The notes below the pieces were generated by a model that searched no databases, had not been told where the DNA came from, and worked only from the letters and a program-made list of their open reading frames with translations. A program made the position numbers and the translations under genes. Source: Candidatus Levyibacteriota bacterium (GTDB lineage: Bacteria; Patescibacteriota; Microgenomatia; Levybacterales; UBA12049). From it: a stretch of DNA of 64,000 nucleotides. The stretch covers positions 176,236 through 240,235 of the forward strand of contig CP066685.1 in assembly GCA_016432345.1 (NCBI GenBank), in the 5' to 3' direction. Positions 1,401-63,766 of the stretch are shown here, piece by piece; the first letter of the stretch is position 1, and every line of letters starts with the position of its first letter.

Positions 1401-3305
1401 ATGGGAAAAATAATTGGTATTGATTTGGGAACAACAAATAGTTGCGTTGCTGTAATGGAGGGTGGATCACCAAAAGTTATTCACTCTGCAGAAGGCAGAA
1501 ACGTTATTCCATCGGTGGTTGATCCAATCAGTCACGTTGTAGGCGATGTGGCCAAACGACAGTTGGTTTTAAAACCAAAACGGACAATATTTTCTGTCAA
1601 AAGACTGATGGGGCGAAAATTCAACGATGAGTCAGTGCAACGAGACATAAAATGGCTTCCCTATACTGTAAAATCCGGCCGCGACGGCATGACTGTGGTT
1701 GAAGTTGAAGGAAAAACCCTAACGCCTCAAGAAGTTTCGGCCATGATCTTACAAAAAATTAAAGCAGACGCAGAATCTTACTTGGGTGGTAAAGTTATCC
1801 AAGCGGTTATTACAGTGCCGGCGTATTTTGATGACAGTCAGCGTCAGGCCACCAAACAAGCAGGAGAAATTGCCGGACTTGAAGTTCTTAGAATTATCAA
1901 CGAACCAACAGCAGCAGCTCTTGCTTATGGCTTGGATAAAAAGAATGCCCATACTATTGCAGTGTATGATTTGGGCGGTGGTACCTTTGATATTTCTATT
2001 TTGGAACTTGGTGAAGGAGTTTATGAAGTAAAGTCAACCAACGGTGATACGCATTTGGGCGGAGATGATTTTGACCAGAAAATTGTTGATTATTTGGCCG
2101 ATGAATTCAAAAAAGAAAATGGCATTGATCTTAAAAAAGATCCGCAGGCATTGCAGCGACTTCGGGAAGCAGCAGAAAAAGCCAAAATTGAGCTTTCTAG
2201 TAGCACCGAGGCGCAGATTAATCAGCCATTTATCACTCAAGGAAAAGAAGGACCTTTACATTTAACCACCACCTTGACCCGGGCAAAACTCGAACAAATT
2301 GTTGATGAGTTGATTCAAAAAACCATTAAACCAGTTGAATTGGCGTTAAAAGACGCAAAGATTAAAGCATCTGATATTGATGAAGTGGTTTTGGTTGGAG
2401 GAATGACCCGTATGCCTAAGGTTATCGAAGCAGTTACTAAATTTTTTGGTAAAGAGCCGAATAAATCAGTTAATCCAGATGAGGTGGTAGCAGTTGGCGC
2501 AGCAATTCAGGGAGGCGTTTTAGGTGGAGAAGTCAAAGATGTTTTACTTTTAGATGTAACACCATTAACGCTTGGACTTGAAACATTAGGCAGTGTTTCA
2601 ACGCCTTTAATTTCCCGAAACACCACAATTCCAACCAGTAAATCACAAGTTTTTTCAACAGCGGCAGATAATCAAACTCAGGTAGAAATTAATGTGTTGC
2701 AGGGCGAGCGGCCAATGGCTTCGGATAACAAATCATTGGGTAGGTTTATTTTGGATGGTATACCTCCAGCTCCCCGTGGTGTTCCGCAAGTTGAAGTAAC
2801 TTTTGATATTGACGCCAGCGGTATTTTAAGTGTTAAAGCCAAAGACAAGGCAACAGGCAAAGAGCAGAGTATTAAAATTACCGGTTCAACAGGGCTTTCG
2901 AAAGACGAAGTTGAAAAAATGACTAAAGAAGCAGAAATGCACGCTAAAGAAGACGAAGAGAAAAAAGCCAAAGTCGAAACACGAAATCAGGCAGATTCGC
3001 TTATTTTTACGGCCGAAAAATCTCTTAAAGACGCAGGAGATAAAGTGAAGGAAGATCTTAAAAAAGAAGTAGAAGAAAAAATATCAGAACTTAAAAAAAT
3101 TCTAGACACAGGCAGCAAGGAGGAAATCGAGAAAAAAGCCAGCGAATTGTCGGATAGTTTGCAAAAAGTGGGACAGGCGATGTCATCTCAGAAAACGGAA
3201 GACGGAGGACAGAAGACGGAAGCCACCTCCACTGAAAGCTCTAATGAGCCAAAGGAAGAAAAAAAAGATAAAGACGAACCTGTTGAGGGAGAAGTGGTAA
3301 ACTAG
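1401..3305 (+). CDS. dnaK: Molecular chaperone DnaK (Hsp70)
   Basis: Contains [17 protein letters not shown] and [12 protein letters not shown] motifs. A GGAG Shine-Dalgarno lies upstream. Confidence 0.99.
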
Positions 3306-5215: not shown

Positions 5216-5785
5216 CTACATCGAGACTTTGACTGCGTCTTTTTCCGAGGCTTGGGCTTGGAAGAATTCTTGTTGTTTAAATCCAAACATGTTGGCAATA
5301 ATGTTGGTGGGGACTGTTTCTATTTTAGTATTTAAATCTCTTACATTGGCATTATAAAATCTTCTTGATGATTCTATATTATTTTCTGTCTGGGTAAGTT
5401 CGTCTTGGAGTTTACTAAAGTTTTCCGATGCCCTAAGGGTTGGATAGTTTTCAGAAACTGCAAACAAACTTTTTAATGCCCCAGTCAGCATGTTTTCTGC
5501 TTGTCCTTTTTCTTCTACTCCTTTTGCCGACATAGCTGCACTTCTGGCTTTGGTAACTTCTTCAAAAACTCCTTTTTCGTGTTTGGCATAGCCTTTGACT
5601 GTTTCAACTAAATTGGGGATTAAATCATATCGGCGCTTTAACTGCACATCAATATCAGACCAGGCATTTTTAGTTTGATTTACTAAAGATACCAAGCCGT
5701 TATATGCTGCAGCAATCCATAAAGCGATAATGGCGAGAATACCGAGAACAATATAAAAAGGATTCATATTTTTATTGTAAAACAA
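5216..5785 (-). CDS. lemA: LemA family membrane protein
   Basis: It has an N-terminal TM helix and the LemA signature region (YNGLV...[20 protein letters not shown]...ENYP.L.A...F..LQ). Confidence 0.85.
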
Positions 5786-5807
5786 TTACAACTCGTTTGT
5801 CAAATTT

Positions 5808-7541
5808 TTACCAGCTCCCGCCTCCACCACCACCAAAGCCCCCGCCGGAAAATCCTCCCCCGCTGGAAAACCCGCTGCCGGATGAGGCAAAACTGTTTTT
5901 TGTTGGCTGCGCTGCAATAGCCGAGGTAAGAGAGTTTGAAAAATGGTTCATATTGCTCGTAAAAAGCATGGCGTTAAATGCATGATTGCTTATATACCAG
6001 TTTGGTTGAGGAAGTTCGATGCCTAGTTTTTTTAGGGCATTGGCAAATTTTTCGGTATTACCAAATACTATGGCATAAGGTAGAATTTCGTTAAACATAT
6101 TTTCTTTTTCAAAAAATTGCTGTCGGTAGTTTTCGGCCTTATCAATAAACAGTTTAAAGCCTAAAATTTTTATATACGTTTCATATCCAAGCTTTGTCCG
6201 TCGGGGCATGTATCGGGAAATAATAAGAAGTGCAAAACCACATATCGAAAGGCCAATCCATATTCCCATCAACGGGAAAATAACAAAAGACAAAACAATA
6301 CCTGTTATAAACAAAGTAAAACCAACACGAGCGTATTTATTTCTGACACTTTCCGGATTTTGGCTAAAGTATTTTTTATCCAAAACATCGGTGTAGAGAG
6401 ATTTTTTAACCAATGCTAAATCGGTATAAAAATTTTTTTCCAGCTCCGAAATTTTAACCGTGTCACCGTCAATAAATAATCGTTCAAAAAGTAATTTTTC
6501 GTAAGTCAGCAATGTATCGGAGCCTTTTTTGCCTTTTTTTAAGATATAATCGGCGGAGCCAAAAACCCACTTTTTTTCCTGTTCGGTAATGGTTAAAAAT
6601 CCCCGCGCTGCCAAATCAACAATTGTAGCCGAGACATCCAATGTGTCTGCCCGCTCGTCTAAAATTGTTCCAACTTCTGCCGGTCGAAGTTTGTCCGGCG
6701 CAAAGTACTGTGCAACAATAGTGTCTGCGGTTAGGTTTTTTTGGTCCCGTCCGTGTTTGAAAAAGAAAAATATGGTGAGTCCAATTCCAAAAATAGTTGT
6801 AGCCAAAAATCCTCCAATATTAAATAGAATCAGCGAAGTTGGTATGTCGTTATTTTCTCCTTGAGGTTTTGAGGCTGTAAGGATCGGCACCATGCCTTTG
6901 GTGTACCCAAGAAGAATACTCATATTTTCTTCGGCTTGCAGAATTCGTGTTGCAGAGAAGTCTGCTTGATTTTGTGAGGTAATAGTTGCCACGCATTTTT
7001 CGCTTGCGTTTTGAATTCCCTCAAAGCAGCGTGCGCCGGTTATTCCACTTTGTGGCAAAGAAATTCTCGCCGATGTTTTAAGAATTGGTACAGGCCAGCC
7101 GTTGCCGGTTACGTCTAGATAGAGTTCATCGTGATCTGAAAAGCTTTTTAATATACCAACCGTAGTGTAAGTTATTGAGTATTTTGCCGATCCAGAAAAT
7201 GTTTGATTAGGTTTACCGATCTTGAGTCGCAAAAAATTGCCATTTTGGCTTTGCTGGTATGGTTCGTTTGCTCCATCTTTTAAGATAGATACGATATATA
7301 TATCAGCGTAAGTATTTTTGTTGTTTTGGTCATAATAGATATTGGGAATGTCCCGATAAATGCCGTGCTTTTGAAGAGTGCCAAAGTTAACATCGATGGT
7401 CTCGGTAATATTTACCTTTCCGTTTTGCTCAACAATAACATTGCTTTGAAAGTTTTCAATAATCCACCCCTCATCAGCATGAGTTAAGGGCGCAAAAGCT
7501 AGAAATATAAAACACAAGAATAAAAATAGAATTTTTCTCAT
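5808..7541 (-). CDS. DUF2207-type membrane protein with glycine-rich C-terminal tail
   Basis: It has a signal peptide, a large N-terminal ectodomain, internal TM helices and a C-terminal SSGSGFSSGGGFSGGGFGGGGGGSW tail. It lies immediately upstream of lemA on the same strand. Confidence 0.7.
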   Translation of the reverse strand: MRKILFLFLCFIFLAFAPLTHADEGWIIENFQSNVIVEQNGKVNITETIDVNFGTLQKHGIYRDIPNIYYDQNNKNTYADIYIVSILKDGANEPYQQSQNGNFLRLKIGKPNQTFSGSAKYSITYTTVGILKSFSDHDELYLDVTGNGWPVPILKTSARISLPQSGITGARCFEGIQNASEKCVATITSQNQADFSATRILQAEENMSILLGYTKGMVPILTASKPQGENNDIPTSLILFNIGGFLATTIFGIGLTIFFFFKHGRDQKNLTADTIVAQYFAPDKLRPAEVGTILDERADTLDVSATIVDLAARGFLTITEQEKKWVFGSADYILKKGKKGSDTLLTYEKLLFERLFIDGDTVKISELEKNFYTDLALVKKSLYTDVLDKKYFSQNPESVRNKYARVGFTLFITGIVLSFVIFPLMGIWIGLSICGFALLIISRYMPRRTKLGYETYIKILGFKLFIDKAENYRQQFFEKENMFNEILPYAIVFGNTEKFANALKKLGIELPQPNWYISNHAFNAMLFTSNMNHFSNSLTSAIAAQPTKNSFASSGSGFSSGGGFSGGGFGGGGGGSW

Positions 7542-43986: not shown

Positions 43987-44015
43987 TTGACGAGCAAGGA
44001 AAAATATTGTAAGAT
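43987..44015 (+). promoter_or_regulatory. Sigma70-like promoter TTGACG-17-TAAGAT for tuf
   Basis: Hexamers and the 17-nt spacer were read directly. Confidence 0.5.
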
Positions 44016-44022
44016 TATTTTT

Positions 44023-44054
44023 AACCTCAAAAGTTGAGGTTTTATTATTTTCTT
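44023..44054 (+). promoter_or_regulatory. 8-bp hairpin AACCTCAA-AAG-TTGAGGTT at the predicted tuf 5' end, followed by a T-rich tract
   Basis: The stem pairs 44023-44030 with 44034-44041 and is followed by TTATTATTTTCTT. No Shine-Dalgarno precedes the ATG at 44063. Confidence 0.5.
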
Positions 44055-44062
44055 ACAAATTT

Positions 44063-45250
44063 ATGGCAGACGTAAAGAAATTCGAGAGAAACAAACCGCA
44101 TATTAATATTGGTACCATTGGTCATGTTGATCATGGCAAGACCACCACCACCGCTGCAATTGCCACTGTTCTTTCTAAAAAAGGTCTAGCCCAGGCTAAA
44201 AAATACGAAGATATTGATAATGCTCCAGAAGAAAAAGCCCGTGGAGTTACCATTAACATTTCTCATATCGAATATGAAACAGACAAAAGACATTATGCTC
44301 ACATTGATGCTCCAGGCCACGCCGATTACATTAAAAACATGATTACAGGAGCAGCCCAAATGGATGGAGCAATTTTAGTGGTGTCGGCGCCAGATGGTCC
44401 AATGCCTCAAACTCGCGAGCACATTCTTTTAGCTCGCCAGGTTGGAGTGCCTTCAATTGTTGTCTATCTTAACAAGTGTGATATGGTGCAAGACGCAGAG
44501 CTTTTGGATTTAGTTGAAATGGAAGTAAGAGAACTTTTGACCAAATATCAATATCCAGGAGCTGATGTACCAATTATTCGTGGTTCGTCTTTAAAAGCAC
44601 TCGAAGGTGATGCAGAATATGAGAAAAAGATCATGGAACTTATGGATGCAGTGGATTCTTATATCCCAACACCAAAGCGCGATATTGACAAGCCATTTAT
44701 GATGGCTGTTGAGGACGTATTCTCTATTAAAGGCCGCGGAACAGTTGTTACAGGACGCGTTGAGCGAGGTCAAGTAAAAGTTAATGAAACAGTTGAAATC
44801 GTGGGAATTAGACCAACTAAGTCAACGGTTGTTACCGGTGTTGAGATGTTTCGAAAACAGCTTGATGAAGCGCAGGCAGGAGACAATGTTGGATTACTCC
44901 TTCGCGGTATCGAAAAAGACGATGTCGAACGGGGACAGGTTATTGCCAAGCCAGGCAGTATTACTCCGCACACAGAATTTGAGGCAGAAGTATATATTTT
45001 AACCAAAGAAGAAGGTGGACGCCATACACCATTTTTTACAGGATATCGTCCACAATTTTATATTCGGACAACCGATGTTACAGCCGAAGTTGCGCTTCCA
45101 CAAGGTGTTGAAATGGTGATGCCGGGAGACAGTACCAAAATGACAGTTAAACTTATAAATCCAATTGCTCTTGAAGAAGGGTTGAGGTTTGCGGTTCGCG
45201 AAGGCGGTAAAACAGTTGGAGCTGGAGTAATTAGTAAAATTCTTAAATAG
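44063..45250 (+). CDS. tuf: Elongation factor Tu
   Basis: Contains [17 protein letters not shown] and NKCD. Full length at 395 aa. Confidence 0.99.
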
Positions 45251-45280: not shown

Positions 45281-45589
45281 ATGCCAAGAGGAAGAATTAG
45301 AGTACGCCTTAAAAGCTACGATGCCAGAGTTATAGACAGTTGTTGCCAGCAAATTTTAGATACGGCCATTAGAACAGGAGCAAAAGTAGTGGGGCCAATC
45401 CCTCTCCCAACAGATCGAAGTGTTTACGTAGTTAATAAATCTCCATTTGTTGATAAAAACGCCCGGGATCATTTTGAAATTAGAGTCCACAAACGCTTAA
45501 TTGATATTATTTCTCCAACCGATCGAACTATTGATCAGCTTACTCACCTCGAACTACCCGCAGGAGTGGATGTTACAATTAAGATGTAG
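45281..45589 (+). CDS. rpsJ: 30S ribosomal protein S10
   Basis: Typical S10 sequence (IRVRLKSYD...GPIPLPT). Confidence 0.97.
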   Translation: MPRGRIRVRLKSYDARVIDSCCQQILDTAIRTGAKVVGPIPLPTDRSVYVVNKSPFVDKNARDHFEIRVHKRLIDIISPTDRTIDQLTHLELPAGVDVTIKM

Positions 45590-45604
45590 GGTTTATCATA
45601 TATC

Positions 45605-45633
45605 TTGTCCCAAATATGCGCATGCGATATACT
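45605..45633 (+). promoter_or_regulatory. Putative promoter TTGTCC-17-TATACT, 7 nt before the acyltransferase GTG
   Basis: Read directly. It implies a leaderless transcript. Confidence 0.4.
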
Positions 45634-45640
45634 AATGTAG

Positions 45641-46720
45641 GTGGATAAAAAGACATATATTTTTGCCGCAGACGTTACTCGCGATATTGCCATCATTGGC
45701 GTTGTTATTATTCATACTATAAATGCCGTTTACACCCGACCTGATTTTTTTGGAGGAATAACCTGGTGGATAACTACATTTTTAGATTCAGCCTCTCGAA
45801 TTTCCATCCCGCTTTTTATTATGCTCAGTGGGTATTTACTGCTAAAAAAAGACGAGACAATGGAACAATCGTTAAAACGAATAGCTTCTAGAATTATAGT
45901 TCCTTTTATCTTTTGGGTGCTTTTTTATTTTTGGTATGGCGGCGGTCTTCCTTCATTTAATTTTATAAGAGTAAGCATTTTAAAAAACGTATTTCAGAGT
46001 AACGTATTTCATCTTTATTATTTGGTTATTCTCATGGGTTTATATGTAATCGCTCCACTGATCCGAGCTTATCTGCGTAGTGTTTCGTTTGCGTCACAAG
46101 AGTTTTTAATGAAGATTTTTCTTGTTGGCGGAGTTCTGCAAGTAGGATTGGAATTTATCTTTCAAACCTGTGCCGCCGAGAATTTTTTTACACGCTGGAT
46201 GCCTTACACAGGGTTTTTTATAGCAGGTTATGTATTGGGCACAAAACAACATCTACTTAAAACATCCAAACTTTTTATATGGTATGCGGCAGCATTTACA
46301 ACAACTGTGGGTCTTAACTATTTACATTATTTCCTTGTTAAATACAAGTATAATTTTCTTGATGCGCCGGGATGTCTTTCATATTACAGCGATCATTATC
46401 TTAGTATAAATGTGGTTATAATGTCTTTGTGCGCTTTTATTTTTTTGCTTCATGCCTCATACGGGTTTTTACAAAACAATAGAATTGCGGCAAAAATTAT
46501 TGCTTCTTTAGCACGAACATCTTTTGGAATATATTTAGCCCACCCGTTTATTAACCGATTTTTAGAGATGCAATTTCATCTAGCTGTTGATATTAGCAAG
46601 TTGCCAATTTTTATTATTATTACACTAAAATTTTTTCTGGTATTTGTGCTTTCTTACTTTCTTACGTTTTTTTGTTTAAAAATTCCAATTGTGCAGCTAG
46701 TTTTTGGTGGAAAAAGGTAA
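45641..46720 (+). CDS. Acyltransferase family 3 (OatA-like) integral membrane protein
   Basis: It has about 10 TM helices, the N-terminal pattern R.IAIIGVV.IH, and a typical Acyl_transf_3 layout. It has a GTG start. Confidence 0.75.
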   Translation: MDKKTYIFAADVTRDIAIIGVVIIHTINAVYTRPDFFGGITWWITTFLDSASRISIPLFIMLSGYLLLKKDETMEQSLKRIASRIIVPFIFWVLFYFWYGGGLPSFNFIRVSILKNVFQSNVFHLYYLVILMGLYVIAPLIRAYLRSVSFASQEFLMKIFLVGGVLQVGLEFIFQTCAAENFFTRWMPYTGFFIAGYVLGTKQHLLKTSKLFIWYAAAFTTTVGLNYLHYFLVKYKYNFLDAPGCLSYYSDHYLSINVVIMSLCAFIFLLHASYGFLQNNRIAAKIIASLARTSFGIYLAHPFINRFLEMQFHLAVDISKLPIFIIITLKFFLVFVLSYFLTFFCLKIPIVQLVFGGKR

Positions 46721-46724
46721 TGTA

Positions 46725-46753
46725 TTGCATTTCCAAGACGTGCGTTATATAAT
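46725..46753 (+). promoter_or_regulatory. Strong sigma70-like promoter TTGCAT-17-TATAAT
   Basis: The -10 is a perfect consensus with a 17-nt spacer. It lies just after the acyltransferase stop codon. Confidence 0.55.
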
Positions 46754-46759
46754 AACAAA

Positions 46760-46921
46760 ACATGGTAAACCTAATGGAGGTGTATCTGGCCCCAAAAGGT
46801 CTTTCCGTTCGCCTTCAGGTACTATTCGTACACGGCTCACGGAGCGGCTCATCGGGGTAGACTACATAGCGCACGAGTTTAGATTTCTAAATACAAAGCG
46901 ACTGTATGTAGTCGCTTTTTT
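46760..46921 (+). ncRNA. Candidate ~160-nt structured leader or small RNA upstream of rplC (unclassified)
   Basis: It is bounded by the promoter at 46725-46753 and an intrinsic terminator. It is visibly more GC-rich than its surroundings. Several helices can be drawn, for example GTATCTGGCCCC/GGGGTAGACTAC and CCGTTCGCC/GGCTCACGG. The overlapping 118-aa track ORF is not credible. Confidence 0.35.
46895..46921 (+). terminator. Intrinsic terminator AAAGCGACT-GTATGT-AGTCGCTTT followed by a T-run
   Basis: The stem is 7-9 bp, the loop is 6 nt, and the tail reads TTTTTTGGTTTTTT. It lies 26 nt upstream of the rplC ATG. Confidence 0.65.
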
Positions 46922-46947
46922 GGTTTTTTCTCCGAAGGCGGATAAAT

Positions 46948-47640
46948 ATGCAAGCATTTATTGGACAAAAATTATTACAAACGCAGGCGTTCCTAACCGA
47001 CGGAACCAGAATTCCTGTGACAAAGATCAATGTGCCACATCTTCCTGTGGTGGCAATTAAAACCAAGAATAAAGATGGCTACAGAGCGCTTCAAGTTGGA
47101 TGGGGACAAAGAAAGCATCCAAATAAAGCAATAGTTGGACATATACGAGGAGCAAAATTAGAAAAAGCACCTCGTTTTTTACGGGAAATTCGTTTAGCAG
47201 ATGCCGATTCGGCAGCCTCGATCGAAGTAGGTTCATATATAAAAGTTGCTGATATCTTAAAACCAGGAGACATGGTTGATGTTGTCGGCATTTCTAAAGG
47301 AAAAGGATATGCCGGAGTTGTAAAAAGACACCATTTTAAAGGTGGACCCAGGACGCATGGGCAATCGGATAGAGAAAGAGCACCAGGCAGTATTGGCCAA
47401 ACCACAACGCCAGGAAGAGTATATAAGGGAAAACGTATGTCTGGTCGCATGGGCCAAGATAGAGTAACAATTAAAAACTTGGAAGTTGTTGACGTAACAG
47501 AAGGAGAAGTGTTGGTAAAAGGTGTTGTGCCAGGCGTAAGAGGTAGTCTAGTTATGATTGAAAAAGTTGGAGAAAAGAAAAAGTTTGCACCATTGTACAA
47601 GGAAAAAGTAGAAGAGGAGGAAAAAGATGCCGGTAAGTAA
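46948..47640 (+). CDS. rplC: 50S ribosomal protein L3
   Basis: Contains FKGGPRTHGQSDRERAPGSIG. An AAGG Shine-Dalgarno lies upstream. Confidence 0.97.
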   Translation: MQAFIGQKLLQTQAFLTDGTRIPVTKINVPHLPVVAIKTKNKDGYRALQVGWGQRKHPNKAIVGHIRGAKLEKAPRFLREIRLADADSAASIEVGSYIKVADILKPGDMVDVVGISKGKGYAGVVKRHHFKGGPRTHGQSDRERAPGSIGQTTTPGRVYKGKRMSGRMGQDRVTIKNLEVVDVTEGEVLVKGVVPGVRGSLVMIEKVGEKKKFAPLYKEKVEEEEKDAGK

Positions 47641-62689: not shown

Positions 62690-63766
62690 ATGGGAAGACT
62701 ATCAGTACATAAAACATCTCCAAATGGACACACCGAAACTTCTCAAAAACTGGAAGCAGTTAGATTGGCCATGGAGCAAATCGAAAAACAATATGGTCGG
62801 GGGTCTATTATGCGTTTTGGCGAGGCAGCGCAAAAGTTTGATATTTCGGTTATTTCCACCGGTTGTCTTCCTTTAGACTTAGCGCTTGGTGTTGGCGGTG
62901 TGCCAAGGGGAAGAATTATAGAAATTTTTGGTCCAGAGGCATCGGGGAAAACAACTATTTGTTTATCTATTATTGCTCAAGCTCAAAAACATGGGGGTGT
63001 GGCGGCGTTTATTGATGCCGAACATGCCCTTGATCCGTTGTGGGCGCAGCGTTTGGGAGTAAAGCTGGACGAATTGCTTATTTCCCAACCTGATACCGGC
63101 GAGCAGGCTCTTGAGATTGCCGAAAGTCTTATCCGAAGCGGCGGCGTTGATGTGTTGGTTATAGATTCTGTAGCGGCATTAGTGCCCAGGGCCGAAATAG
63201 AGGGAGAAATGGGAGATTCGATGATGGGTCTTCAAGCAAGACTAATGTCTCAAGCGCTTCGAAAATTAACAGGAGTTATTTCTAAATCCAAAACTGTGTG
63301 TATTTTTACCAATCAATTGCGTCAAAAGATTGGGGTCATGTTTGGTAACCCCGAAACCACCACTGGCGGTTTGGCATTAAAGTTTTATTCATCAATTCGT
63401 ATGGATGTTAGAAAAATCGAAACCATCAAAGACGGCGATAAAGTGGTTGGGTCGCGGCATCGGGTTAAGATTGTCAAAAATAAAGTATCCTCACCATTTC
63501 GGATTGCCGAGTTTGATGTTGGATCAGGCGGCATATCTCGAGAAGGCGGCATTTTGGATGTGGGGTTAGAAATGGGAGTGTTGCAAAAATCTGGCGCATT
63601 TTACCGCTATAACGATCAAATGATTGGTCAGGGAAAAATTGCCGTAGCGGAGTATTTAAAAGAAAATCAGGATGTGGCCAAAAAAATTGTGGCGGAAATT
63701 ATGGATAAAAGTAAAGGCGTAACACCAGTGGCAGTGGGCATGGAAGAAGCCTCTGAATCAGAATAA
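62690..63766 (+). CDS. recA: Recombinase RecA
   Basis: Contains [12 protein letters not shown], the FIDAEHALD pattern and L1/L2 loop regions. Confidence 0.99.

Follow-up and report, generated by a model that had tools for sequence, protein, structure and literature searches.

What does a short transcription unit do directly in front of a ribosomal-protein operon? The question is raised by the rplC locus of a Candidatus Levyibacteriota bacterium (assembly GCA_016432345.1, contig CP066685.1, positions 176,236 to 240,235; this whole 64,000-nt stretch is referred to as the window), where a promoter and an intrinsic terminator enclose about 160 nt just upstream of rplC and rplD. The original prediction had proposed two readings, an attenuator comparable to the E. 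coli S10 leader or an independent small RNA (sRNA), with GC-rich helices as the body of the RNA. We consider it fairly probable that the region is the leader of the operon beginning with rplC and rplD, and that it acts as a transcription attenuator that senses the ribosome. The architecture of this attenuator, consisting of a promoter, a mini-open reading frame (mini-ORF), a strand (X) complementary to the terminator, and the terminator itself, is conserved, and X and the terminator co-vary. The GC-rich helices, judging from the comparison with relatives, are a lineage-specific insertion that is a passenger relative to the conserved attenuator.

The leader was compared with 80 related rplC loci (L001-L080) from the Microgenomates (Levy-, Roizman- and Gottesmanbacteria). 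The L3 protein of the window is 60-74% identical to that of its top relatives, the closest being L087 (74%). In about 70 Microgenomates genomes, rplC is preceded by a conserved leader promoter, a terminator and an antiterminator pairing that excludes the terminator. The attenuator reading of the original prediction is borne out for these three parts, but the GC-rich helices are not part of it.

The promoter had been placed correctly at 46725-46753 (TTGCAT-17-TATAAT). Its -35 element, TTGCAT (46725-46730, + strand), recurs as TTGCA(T/A) 17 nt before the -10 in 38 of the 39 Levybacteria rplC leaders. The -10 element, TATAAT (46748-46753, + strand; extended form TATATAAT), is conserved in Levy- and Roizmanbacteria leaders, the Roizmanbacteria promoter being TTGACC-17 nt-TATAAT. 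The -10 of the window is perfect, while its -35 matches TTGACA at three of six positions only, and a consensus scanner missed the promoter for this reason. The positional conservation in 38 of 39 leaders seems to us far better evidence for a promoter than a match to the consensus.

The terminator (AGCGACT-GTATGT-AGTCGCT and a T-run, 46897-46921) was confirmed by a terminator scan, with 10 pairs. The complete element (46895-46929, + strand) has a stem at 46895-46904/46909-46918 and a T-run to 46921, followed by GG and TTTTTT. The hairpin alone has a predicted energy of -11.5 kcal/mol (ViennaRNA), and its 23-mer is unique in the window. In the 37 distinct leaders of the Levy-1 type, the terminator stem was paired in 100% of the alignment cells. 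Among the other Microgenomates leaders a hairpin scan detected a hairpin with a U-run in 37 of 39 (three detections were set aside as mis-placed). In most genomes the hairpin, with 6-9 T, lies 6-30 nt before the rplC start, and farther away in a minority. In the window the rplC ATG (46948) stands 26 nt past the T-run, as had been predicted. These 26 nt leave no space for another promoter, so that the rplC operon must be expressed by readthrough of the terminator.

The strand X, the 5' strand of the antiterminator (GACTACATAGCGC, 46860-46872, + strand), contains the ancestral stop codon of the mini-ORF. In the predicted folds it pairs with 46898-46913, a segment (Y) made up of the terminator 5' arm, loop and 3' arm. 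The conserved X of Levybacteria reads GnCTACATAG, or AGCCTAA in a second leader type. In the X:Y register, 84% of the cells were paired in the 37 Levy-1 leaders, in comparison to 23-46% when the partner was slid, and three pairs had changed on both sides (e.g. CTACA/TGTAG to CTGCA/TGCAG, or to CTTCA/TGGGG). We also paired each X with its own terminator and with swapped ones. The Levy-1 X strands bound their own terminators better (-12.0 vs -10.7 kcal/mol; permutation p = 5e-5, relatedness ignored), and so did the X strands of 34 leaders from other clades (-15.3 vs -12.8 kcal/mol; p = 5e-5, relatedness ignored). The X-terminator duplexes of these 34 leaders had a mean z of -1.6 against dinucleotide shuffles. 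The pairs are unrelated in sequence from clade to clade, as seen with GGCTACATAG/CTATGTAGTC, AGCCTA/TAGGCT, CCGGATTGG/CCAATCTGG and CTCGGATGAG/CTCAACCGAG, and with the further clade-specific pairs TCGGAT/ATCCGG and TTTGGC/GCCAAA. The covariation in orthologous leaders, which the original prediction had proposed to look for, is therefore present between X and the terminator.

In the window, the antiterminator conformer (X and Y enclosing P2, a small variable hairpin) was predicted at -17.3 kcal/mol, and the full-length folds were isoenergetic (-52.8 kcal/mol for the terminator form and -52.9 kcal/mol for the antiterminator form). P2 (46877-46892, + strand) is TTTAG/CTAAA in the predicted fold, and by eye is of the UUAGG/CCUAA type in most Levy-1 leaders. 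The + strand of the leader folded better than shuffles (z = -3.0, 0/200). Since the operon needs readthrough, and since X and the terminator co-vary, attenuation is the well-supported reading of this leader.

The mini-ORF bears on what the attenuator senses. In the window it (46762-46860, + strand) starts with an ATG 8 nt past the -10 and has 32 codons, ending in a TAG at 46858-46860. The ancestral form has 11 codons, with an in-frame TAG at 46867-46869, and this 11-codon form is found in L087. An automatic scan found ATG mini-ORFs in about 55 of the 80 leaders, and further ones were recognised by eye in Gottesmanbacteria. The start codon is always ATG. In Roizmanbacteria, the window and L087 it follows the -10 by 6-9 nt, which would make their transcripts effectively leaderless; in the other Levybacteria the gap is 13-19 nt. 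Eleven codons are found in most Levy-1 leaders (MINRLEVYLAT), in the L024 clade (MTTLRRVSLTT) and in Roizmanbacteria, including L061, L062, L066 and L051, which are unrelated in sequence (the Roizmanbacteria peptides are MLIILCSGTKD, MTFFRLYGKIA, MFIFSQKEKVG and MLVFLAEENSK). Within Levy-1, the mini-ORF has 11, 12 or 13 codons, and its length thus varies in steps of 3 nt. Levy-1 (CTACATAG) and Levy-2 (AGCCTAA) have the stop codon inside X, whereas in Roizman- and Gottesmanbacteria it precedes X by a few to about 20 nt. Synonymous codon differences made up 22% in the mini-ORF frame, in comparison to 11% and 14% in the shifted frames.

Most Levybacteria leaders also keep a perfect motif of the Shine-Dalgarno (SD) type, GGAGGTG, inside the mini-ORF (46776-46782, + strand, in the window) and 5-6 nt upstream of X; its function as a ribosome-binding motif is putative. 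We evaluated two other roles for it. As the SD of a 3-codon ORF starting with UUG or CUG, it would have a start codon in about 15 of 20 Levy-1 leaders and none in the other clades, and this was kept only as a variant of ribosome occupancy. As a distant SD of rplC brought near by folding, it would have an effective spacing of about 26 nt, and this was rejected.

Ribosome-mediated sensing is suggested by the conserved AUG mini-ORF, by its stop in or next to X, and by the GGAGGTG of Levybacteria. The involvement of the ribosome is further supported by the invariance of the ATG near the 5' end, by the frame-preserving lengths and, weakly, by the two-fold excess of synonymous changes. Occupancy of the mini-ORF by the ribosome is thus the best-supported signal.

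We propose that transcription would start from the promoter at 46725-46753, 1-2 nt before the AUG, and that the short ORF (11 codons ancestrally, 32 in the window) would be translated. The stop of this ORF would lie inside or next to X (46860-46872), which is complementary to the terminator loop and arms (46895-46918). When free, X would pair with the nascent terminator, and RNA polymerase would read into rplC. A ribosome at the end of the mini-ORF would mask X, so that the terminator would form and transcription would stop at about 46921; a subunit held on the SD-like GGAGGTG of most Levybacteria would mask X likewise. Plentiful initiating ribosomes would in this way throttle the operon, and translation capacity would feed back on the transcription of ribosomal proteins. 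If true, about 25 ribosomal-protein genes would be coupled negatively to the supply of initiating ribosomes. In this scheme we infer the translation of the mini-ORF, the ribosome as the signal and the direction of the effect.

Several observations weigh against this proposal. Where transcription starts, that it ends at about 46921 and that the mini-ORF is translated are all predictions from the sequence. The column entropy of the mini-ORF showed no clear three-base periodicity, and its peptide sequence is wholly different between clades. The conservation of its length could partly be a constraint of RNA structure, since Roizmanbacteria have a co-varying hairpin that spans the ORF (the 5' hairpin of Levybacteria, P1, showed no consistent covariation by eye, unlike that of Roizmanbacteria). 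In most Levybacteria the AUG lies behind a 5' untranslated region (UTR) of about 6-12 nt without an SD, which makes initiation uncertain there. No runs of regulatory codons were seen in the leader peptides (e.g. MINRLEVYLAT, MLIILCSGTKD); the leader is for this reason not a classical amino-acid attenuator, and a general sensor of translation capacity is possible. As for the pairing, the double-sided covariation of X:Y in Levy-1 is modest (7 cells), with a score that was matched by 4 of 500 shuffles, and neither of the partner-swap p-values takes phylogenetic relatedness into account. Finally, the tuf leader of the window (43990-44062; hairpin 44023-44041) has a hairpin and U-tract that are promoter-proximal and leave no room for a switch. 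For the tuf hairpin, 5' stabilisation, weak termination and a role in translation are all conceivable, and the hairpin-plus-U-tract elements of these genomes may be weak terminators or 5' stabilisers.

The same attenuator might respond to a protein, with L4 or L3 of the operon stabilising the terminator through a site in the terminator hairpin, P2 or the 5' hairpin, and with the mini-ORF being incidental or secondary. The position directly before rplC-rplD mirrors autogenous control by ribosomal proteins, and a candidate archaeal L4 leader upstream of rplC is recorded in PMC7247131. The terminator hairpin is conserved in sequence across Levybacteria (AAGCGACTnTATGTAGTCGC) and P2 recurs as UUAGG/CCUAA, and conservation at the sequence level is typical of protein-binding sites. 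However, this conservation is already explained by the three-way pairing of X, the 5' arm and the 3' arm, and a model with a protein only would leave the invariant ATG, the multiple-of-3 ORF lengths and the stop inside X unexplained. Moreover, Levy-, Roizman- and Gottesmanbacteria have wholly different terminator and X sequences in spite of their conserved L4 and L3, and no similarity to the curated ribosomal-protein leaders of Rfam was found. We regard control by L4 or L3 as unlikely, while still the strongest competitor of ribosome sensing.

It is considerably more improbable that the hairpin and U-tract form a protective 5' UTR with a U-rich landing pad for ribosomes, in which the X pairing would tune mRNA stability or rplC translation. 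The analogous hairpin, U-tract and SD-less ATG of tuf in Levy- and Roizmanbacteria would fit such a role, as would the many rplC genes that start 6-30 nt past the U-tract without an SD. Yet the rplC hairpin has all the properties of a terminator (10 bp, a GC-rich base, and 6-9 U directly after it). An effect on translation is also hard to derive, since the U-tract and the start codon are equally exposed in both conformers.

An independent sRNA gene of about 160 nt, incidentally next to rplC, can practically be dismissed as the primary function, since this discrete promoter-terminator unit with its stable predicted structure stays with rplC even where genes intervene between rpsJ and rplC, leaves rplC no other promoter in the 26 nt after the terminator, has the conserved alternative pairing that is the hallmark of a cis-acting switch, and lacks the GC-rich body in all relatives. 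Terminated leader transcripts would nevertheless exist as a by-product of attenuation.

How does the ribosome-sensed attenuator compare with known systems? In E. coli, the S10 leader is subject to L4-mediated, NusA-dependent attenuation. The Levybacteria leader is similar in that an intrinsic terminator lies directly before an S10-type ribosomal-protein cluster and readthrough is needed. It differs in its place between rpsJ and rplC, with a promoter of its own. Further differences are its AUG mini-ORF, which is conserved, and its explicit antiterminator strand. The original prediction had seen that the unit precedes rplC-rplD and not rpsJ, and the leader does sit downstream of rpsJ and an acyltransferase gene. 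It showed no sequence or structure similarity to the curated leaders in Rfam, and L4 is a candidate effector here by analogy.

The trpL, pheL, hisL and pyrL leaders are ribosome-mediated leader-peptide attenuators, and the E. coli ampC attenuator is regulated by growth rate. The Levybacteria leader would share with them a short leader ORF whose occupancy chooses between antiterminator and terminator, and a stop codon that is placed such that a terminating ribosome masks the antiterminator strand. Unlike the trpL-type attenuators, it has no regulatory codon runs, its ORF begins with the transcript itself or only a few nt into it, and its ancestral form has no 1:2 pause hairpin that sequesters X. 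The target also differs, being the ribosomal proteins, so that the sensed variable would be translation capacity itself. Among archaea, Eckert & Weinberg (2020; PMC7247131) give a candidate L4 ribosomal-protein leader of Archaeoglobi upstream of rplC-rplD, with L4 listed as the likely ligand. This too is a conserved RNA motif directly before rplC-rplD-rplW-rplB, compared here by position only, in another domain of life.

We further examined the GC-rich stretch. Its enrichment, reported in the original prediction for about 140 nt, is real; it is confined to 46790-46861, the remaining leader having 37-43% GC. This 72-nt palindromic element (+ strand; hairpin 46790-46857, closed by CCCC...GGGG) has 56.9% GC, in comparison to a window mean of 37.8%, and is in the top 0.8% of all 72-nt windows. 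Of the unit of about 170 nt, the 5' end and the 3' half alone are conserved among the 80 rplC loci, and these two parts are adjacent in the relatives. In L087 the sequence runs TTGCAT...TATAATAACAAAACATGGTAAACC...GGAGGTGTATCTGG and continues directly with CTACATAGCG. As L087 joins the flanking parts directly, the window carries a 72-nt insertion at 46790-46861; the insert was absent from L087 and from all other rplC leaders that we examined. A second assembly from another sample (L086) has an identical leader, insert included, so that the leader and its insert are not an assembly artefact.

The insert leaves X, P2 and the terminator intact and the mini-ORF open, with a stop 6 nt before the ancestral one. 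Its stop-free, in-frame passage was not counted in favour of mini-ORF translation, since the length of the element, where measured, seems divisible by 3 (72 nt here) and two of its three frames are free of stops in any case. In the ViennaRNA fold, 46780-46788 pairs with 46858-46867, extending the insert stem over X. This is the first helix of the original prediction, GTATCTGGCCCC with GGGGTAGACTAC (46782-46793/46854-46865), in which the CCCC/GGGG part is supported by the family described below and the rest is an organism-specific extension that is predicted by ViennaRNA. According to this fold, the extension may favour the terminator unless a ribosome unwinds the element. The second helix, CCGTTCGCC (46805-46813) with GGCTCACGG (46834-46842), corresponds to family helices 2 and 3 (P3a/P3b), which are conserved or co-varying.

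A sequence similar to the insert was also seen in a second Levybacteria genome (L018), where it lies in the leader of tuf. A pattern from these two copies gave 33 metagenome matches, and the 25 distinct sequences, including that of the window, have a nearly invariant core CUUaCCGUUCGCCUUCAGGUACUAUUCGUACACGGCUCACGGAGCG with variable closing stems around it. In an alignment of 28 sequences that was fitted to the model, 97.9% of the helix cells were paired, 13 of the 15 pairs had changed on both sides, and none of 500 shuffles scored as high; an independent MAFFT/RNAalifold run returned the same helices. When slid, the family helices were paired in 28-39%. A covariance model (R1) recognised one copy in the window, at 46788-46862, with 82 bits (E 2e-23) on the + strand and 10 bits on the - strand. 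The divergent copies recovered with R1 have compensated helices (CCGU/ACGG to CCAA/UUGG or CUUU/AAAG). The covariance model was needed for these, nhmmer with the two copies having found nothing new in the 80 loci. A weak R1 match at 63587-63670 fell in ordinary coding sequence (by eye the 3' end of recA) and was considered a chance match.

The hosts are Levy-, Gottesman- and Shapirobacteria and other Patescibacteria, that is, several phyla of the candidate phyla radiation (CPR). Copies are found in 5' UTRs, 6-65 nt before the starts of tuf, rpsB, rpsU, pth, trpS, nrdR and genes for small membrane proteins; between the genes of operons (ilvN-ilvC, rplP-rpmC); and in a 16S rRNA leader. The tuf-leader copy was found only in L018 and the rplP-rpmC copy only in L010. 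Copy number is low, with one in the 64-kb window and two in 615 kb of Microgenomates loci. Other copies lie in frame inside genes, namely those for ribosomal protein S1 (L094), a UvrD_C/UvrD-like helicase (L115) and a PMT_2-like membrane protein (L091). These three share one frame and encode ..RSPSGTIRTRLTER.., whereas the reverse complement of the element (consensus, by eye) apparently has stops in all three frames.

Among 120 homologues of S1, 7 carry the insert, at one site in an S1-domain loop. Relatives with 79-83% identity lack it, and one with only 64% identity has it. There the element is nearly identical while the flanking codons have diverged. The recurrence in S1, as read from these sequences, suggests site-specific re-insertion or gene conversion. 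We also noted the insert in the same loop in distantly related hosts (L094, 1751-1825; L128; P0166, P0180, P0181, P0187, P0188, P0190, P0198). It occurs there in a long (..SRSPSGTIRTRLTER..) and a short (..SRSGRQTPLTER..) form, each in more than one S1 lineage.

On these sequence patterns, the family is apparently a mobile hairpin element similar to the Rickettsia palindromic elements (RPEs), the likeness lying in the pattern of gain and loss and in the tolerance of in-frame copies. RPEs are reviewed in PMC10969869 and have a size of about 100-150 nt. Like the 72-nt insert, they are short palindromic repeats that form a stable hairpin and are dispersed in unrelated loci, often in frame inside protein genes, where they add a hydrophilic peptide (..RSPSGTIRTRLTER.. 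in our case), but also intergenic and beside RNA genes. RPEs have no transposase of their own, and none was identified for the insert. Unlike RPEs, the CPR element has about 75 nt, occurs in several candidate phyla with a nearly invariant core, and is of low copy number per genome with a strong bias in strand and gene orientation. It also recurs at an identical S1-gene site in distantly related hosts, and has no recognised terminal inverted repeats or target-site duplications.

The alternative is that the insert is a functional cis-regulatory or processing RNA (a site for a conserved CPR protein, a small ribozyme or a stabiliser) that has been recruited repeatedly to transcripts of the translation apparatus. 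This is possible but rather doubtful. Conservation of the core is extreme from one candidate phylum to the next and covariation is seen in all four helices, the element has the orientation of the gene downstream in about 19 of 26 contexts and is often 6-65 nt away from a start codon on its 3' side, and its neighbours are enriched for tuf, rplC, rpsB, rpsU, rpmC, the 16S leader, pth and trpS. The low copy number (one in 64 kb, two in 615 kb) and the much better conservation of the element than of the flanking coding sequence in the S1 gene also speak for a function. Such a role does not, however, account for the in-frame copies inside the S1, UvrD-like helicase and PMT_2-like genes, the presence or absence at an identical site among close orthologues, or the three copies within 2 kb in one contig (L098), all of which are patterns of insertion and loss. 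Nor does it agree with the absence of the insert from the orthologous rplC leaders of relatives. The mobile-element and functional-RNA views are not mutually exclusive.

We searched for marks of transposition. No target-site duplication was seen at the window site or the S1 site, no terminal inverted repeats were recognised in the family, and no transposase was identified. CTTGAC is duplicated around the copies in L093, L098 and L113, next to promoters. The three copies in L098 are at 1107-1183, 1566-1640 (+) and 1784-1858 (-); two of them have a duplicated CTTGAC on their flanks, which also serves the next promoter as its -35, and behind each comes a second GC-rich hairpin. In L113 a stretch of 14 nt, AATTGCCnCTTGAC, is duplicated.

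Some of the copies in 5' UTRs have further elements attached. In L095, L101, L102, L114 and L119, another conserved hairpin, UAAGAnnUCU...AGAnnUCUAA, comes after the element, and then a strong SD. In a different subgroup, (U/C)(A/G)AAAGGGGGUGA forms the end, immediately ahead of the start codon. Such arrangements may represent composite modules. In L092 a hairpin copy (5570-5644, -) lies about 85 nt downstream of the RNase P RNA gene (5729-6126, -), at the 5' end of the next transcript.

Comparison with known RNAs was made with Rfam release 15. At the gathering threshold, the whole window contained one tRNA only and nothing in the leader. At E <= 10, the 401-nt leader region gave terminator-like chance matches only and no curated ribosomal-protein leader. 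That the leader matches no Rfam family agrees with the original prediction, which had recognised no signal recognition particle (SRP) RNA, 6S RNA, transfer-messenger RNA or tRNA. In the 17 hairpin-bearing loci, Rfam found 16S rRNA, RNase P RNA and tRNA only, and none of these overlapped the hairpin. The cores of the K-turn, T-loop or tRNA-like structures, SRP, group II domain V, twister and hammerhead were compared by eye, and none of them fitted or had Rfam support. Three matches on viral contigs, all in one phage coding region without the helices, were ascribed to chance. In literature searches on ribosomal-protein leaders of CPR, leader peptides of the S10 operon, structured RNAs of Patescibacteria and the hairpin sequence, we found no earlier description.

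To our knowledge, almost nothing is known of how ribosome synthesis is regulated in CPR (Patescibacteria), which make up a large uncultured share of bacteria. Taken together, we tentatively suggest two things, although we would put the combination at somewhat below even: that the main ribosomal-protein operon of Microgenomates is under a (near-)leaderless mini-ORF attenuator which replaces control of the L4 type, and that the hairpin is the first RPE-like family in CPR. The first, if true, would be a feedback in which ribosomes count ribosomes at the level of transcription, reading the availability of initiating ribosomes, and the reduced CPR genomes would have solved ribosomal-protein feedback differently from E. 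coli. The second, if true, would mean that a nucleotide-constrained unit of about 75 nt moves between candidate phyla, returns to the S1 site and tolerates translation. Its nearly invariant loops suggest a dedicated recognition machinery or a catalytic activity. The hairpin represents a new RNA/DNA family that co-varies strongly and has no entry in Rfam, and it links CPR genomes to the phenomenon of in-frame 'selfish palindromes' that is best known from Rickettsia. It also matters for annotation, since the element makes spurious insertions of 25 residues in proteins such as S1 and inflates the local GC content.

The genes around the leader are tuf (44063-45250), rpsJ (45281-45589), a gene for an Acyl_transf_3 membrane protein (45641-46720), then the leader and rplC (ATG at 46948), followed by rplD, rplW, rplB and onwards. 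The junction between rpsJ and rplC is a hotspot of gene insertion in Levybacteria, the distance between the two genes being about 170-2400 nt in L001-L080. The leader stays with rplC at every variable junction, and in the window the junction (45590-46724) holds the Acyl_transf_3 gene. In one Roizmanbacteria contig (L076, 3671-4000) rpsJ apparently has a truncated 3' end that is fused to the rplC leader midway along it, and the leader lacks its promoter and mini-ORF.

The tuf leader of Levy- and Roizmanbacteria has a CTTGAC-type promoter, a hairpin at the 5' end, (A/G)CCTTAA...TTAAGG, a U-tract and an SD-less ATG. Many Microgenomates rplC genes (L001-L080) start in a U-rich tract without an SD. 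In the window, the ribosome-binding region of rplC (46931-46950, + strand) has a hairpin, TCCG-AAGG-CGGA, presenting AAGG before the ATG. A short additional segment with GAAGG has been gained before rplC by the window and L087, and in the window this motif lies in the loop of this 4-bp hairpin (46931-46942). Finally, in Logan assemblies from five samples (L081-L085), the contigs begin 49-52 nt ahead of rplC, at a point inside the terminator hairpin or immediately past it. As the terminator sequence is conserved across Levybacteria, it probably acts here as a repeat that breaks assembly graphs.

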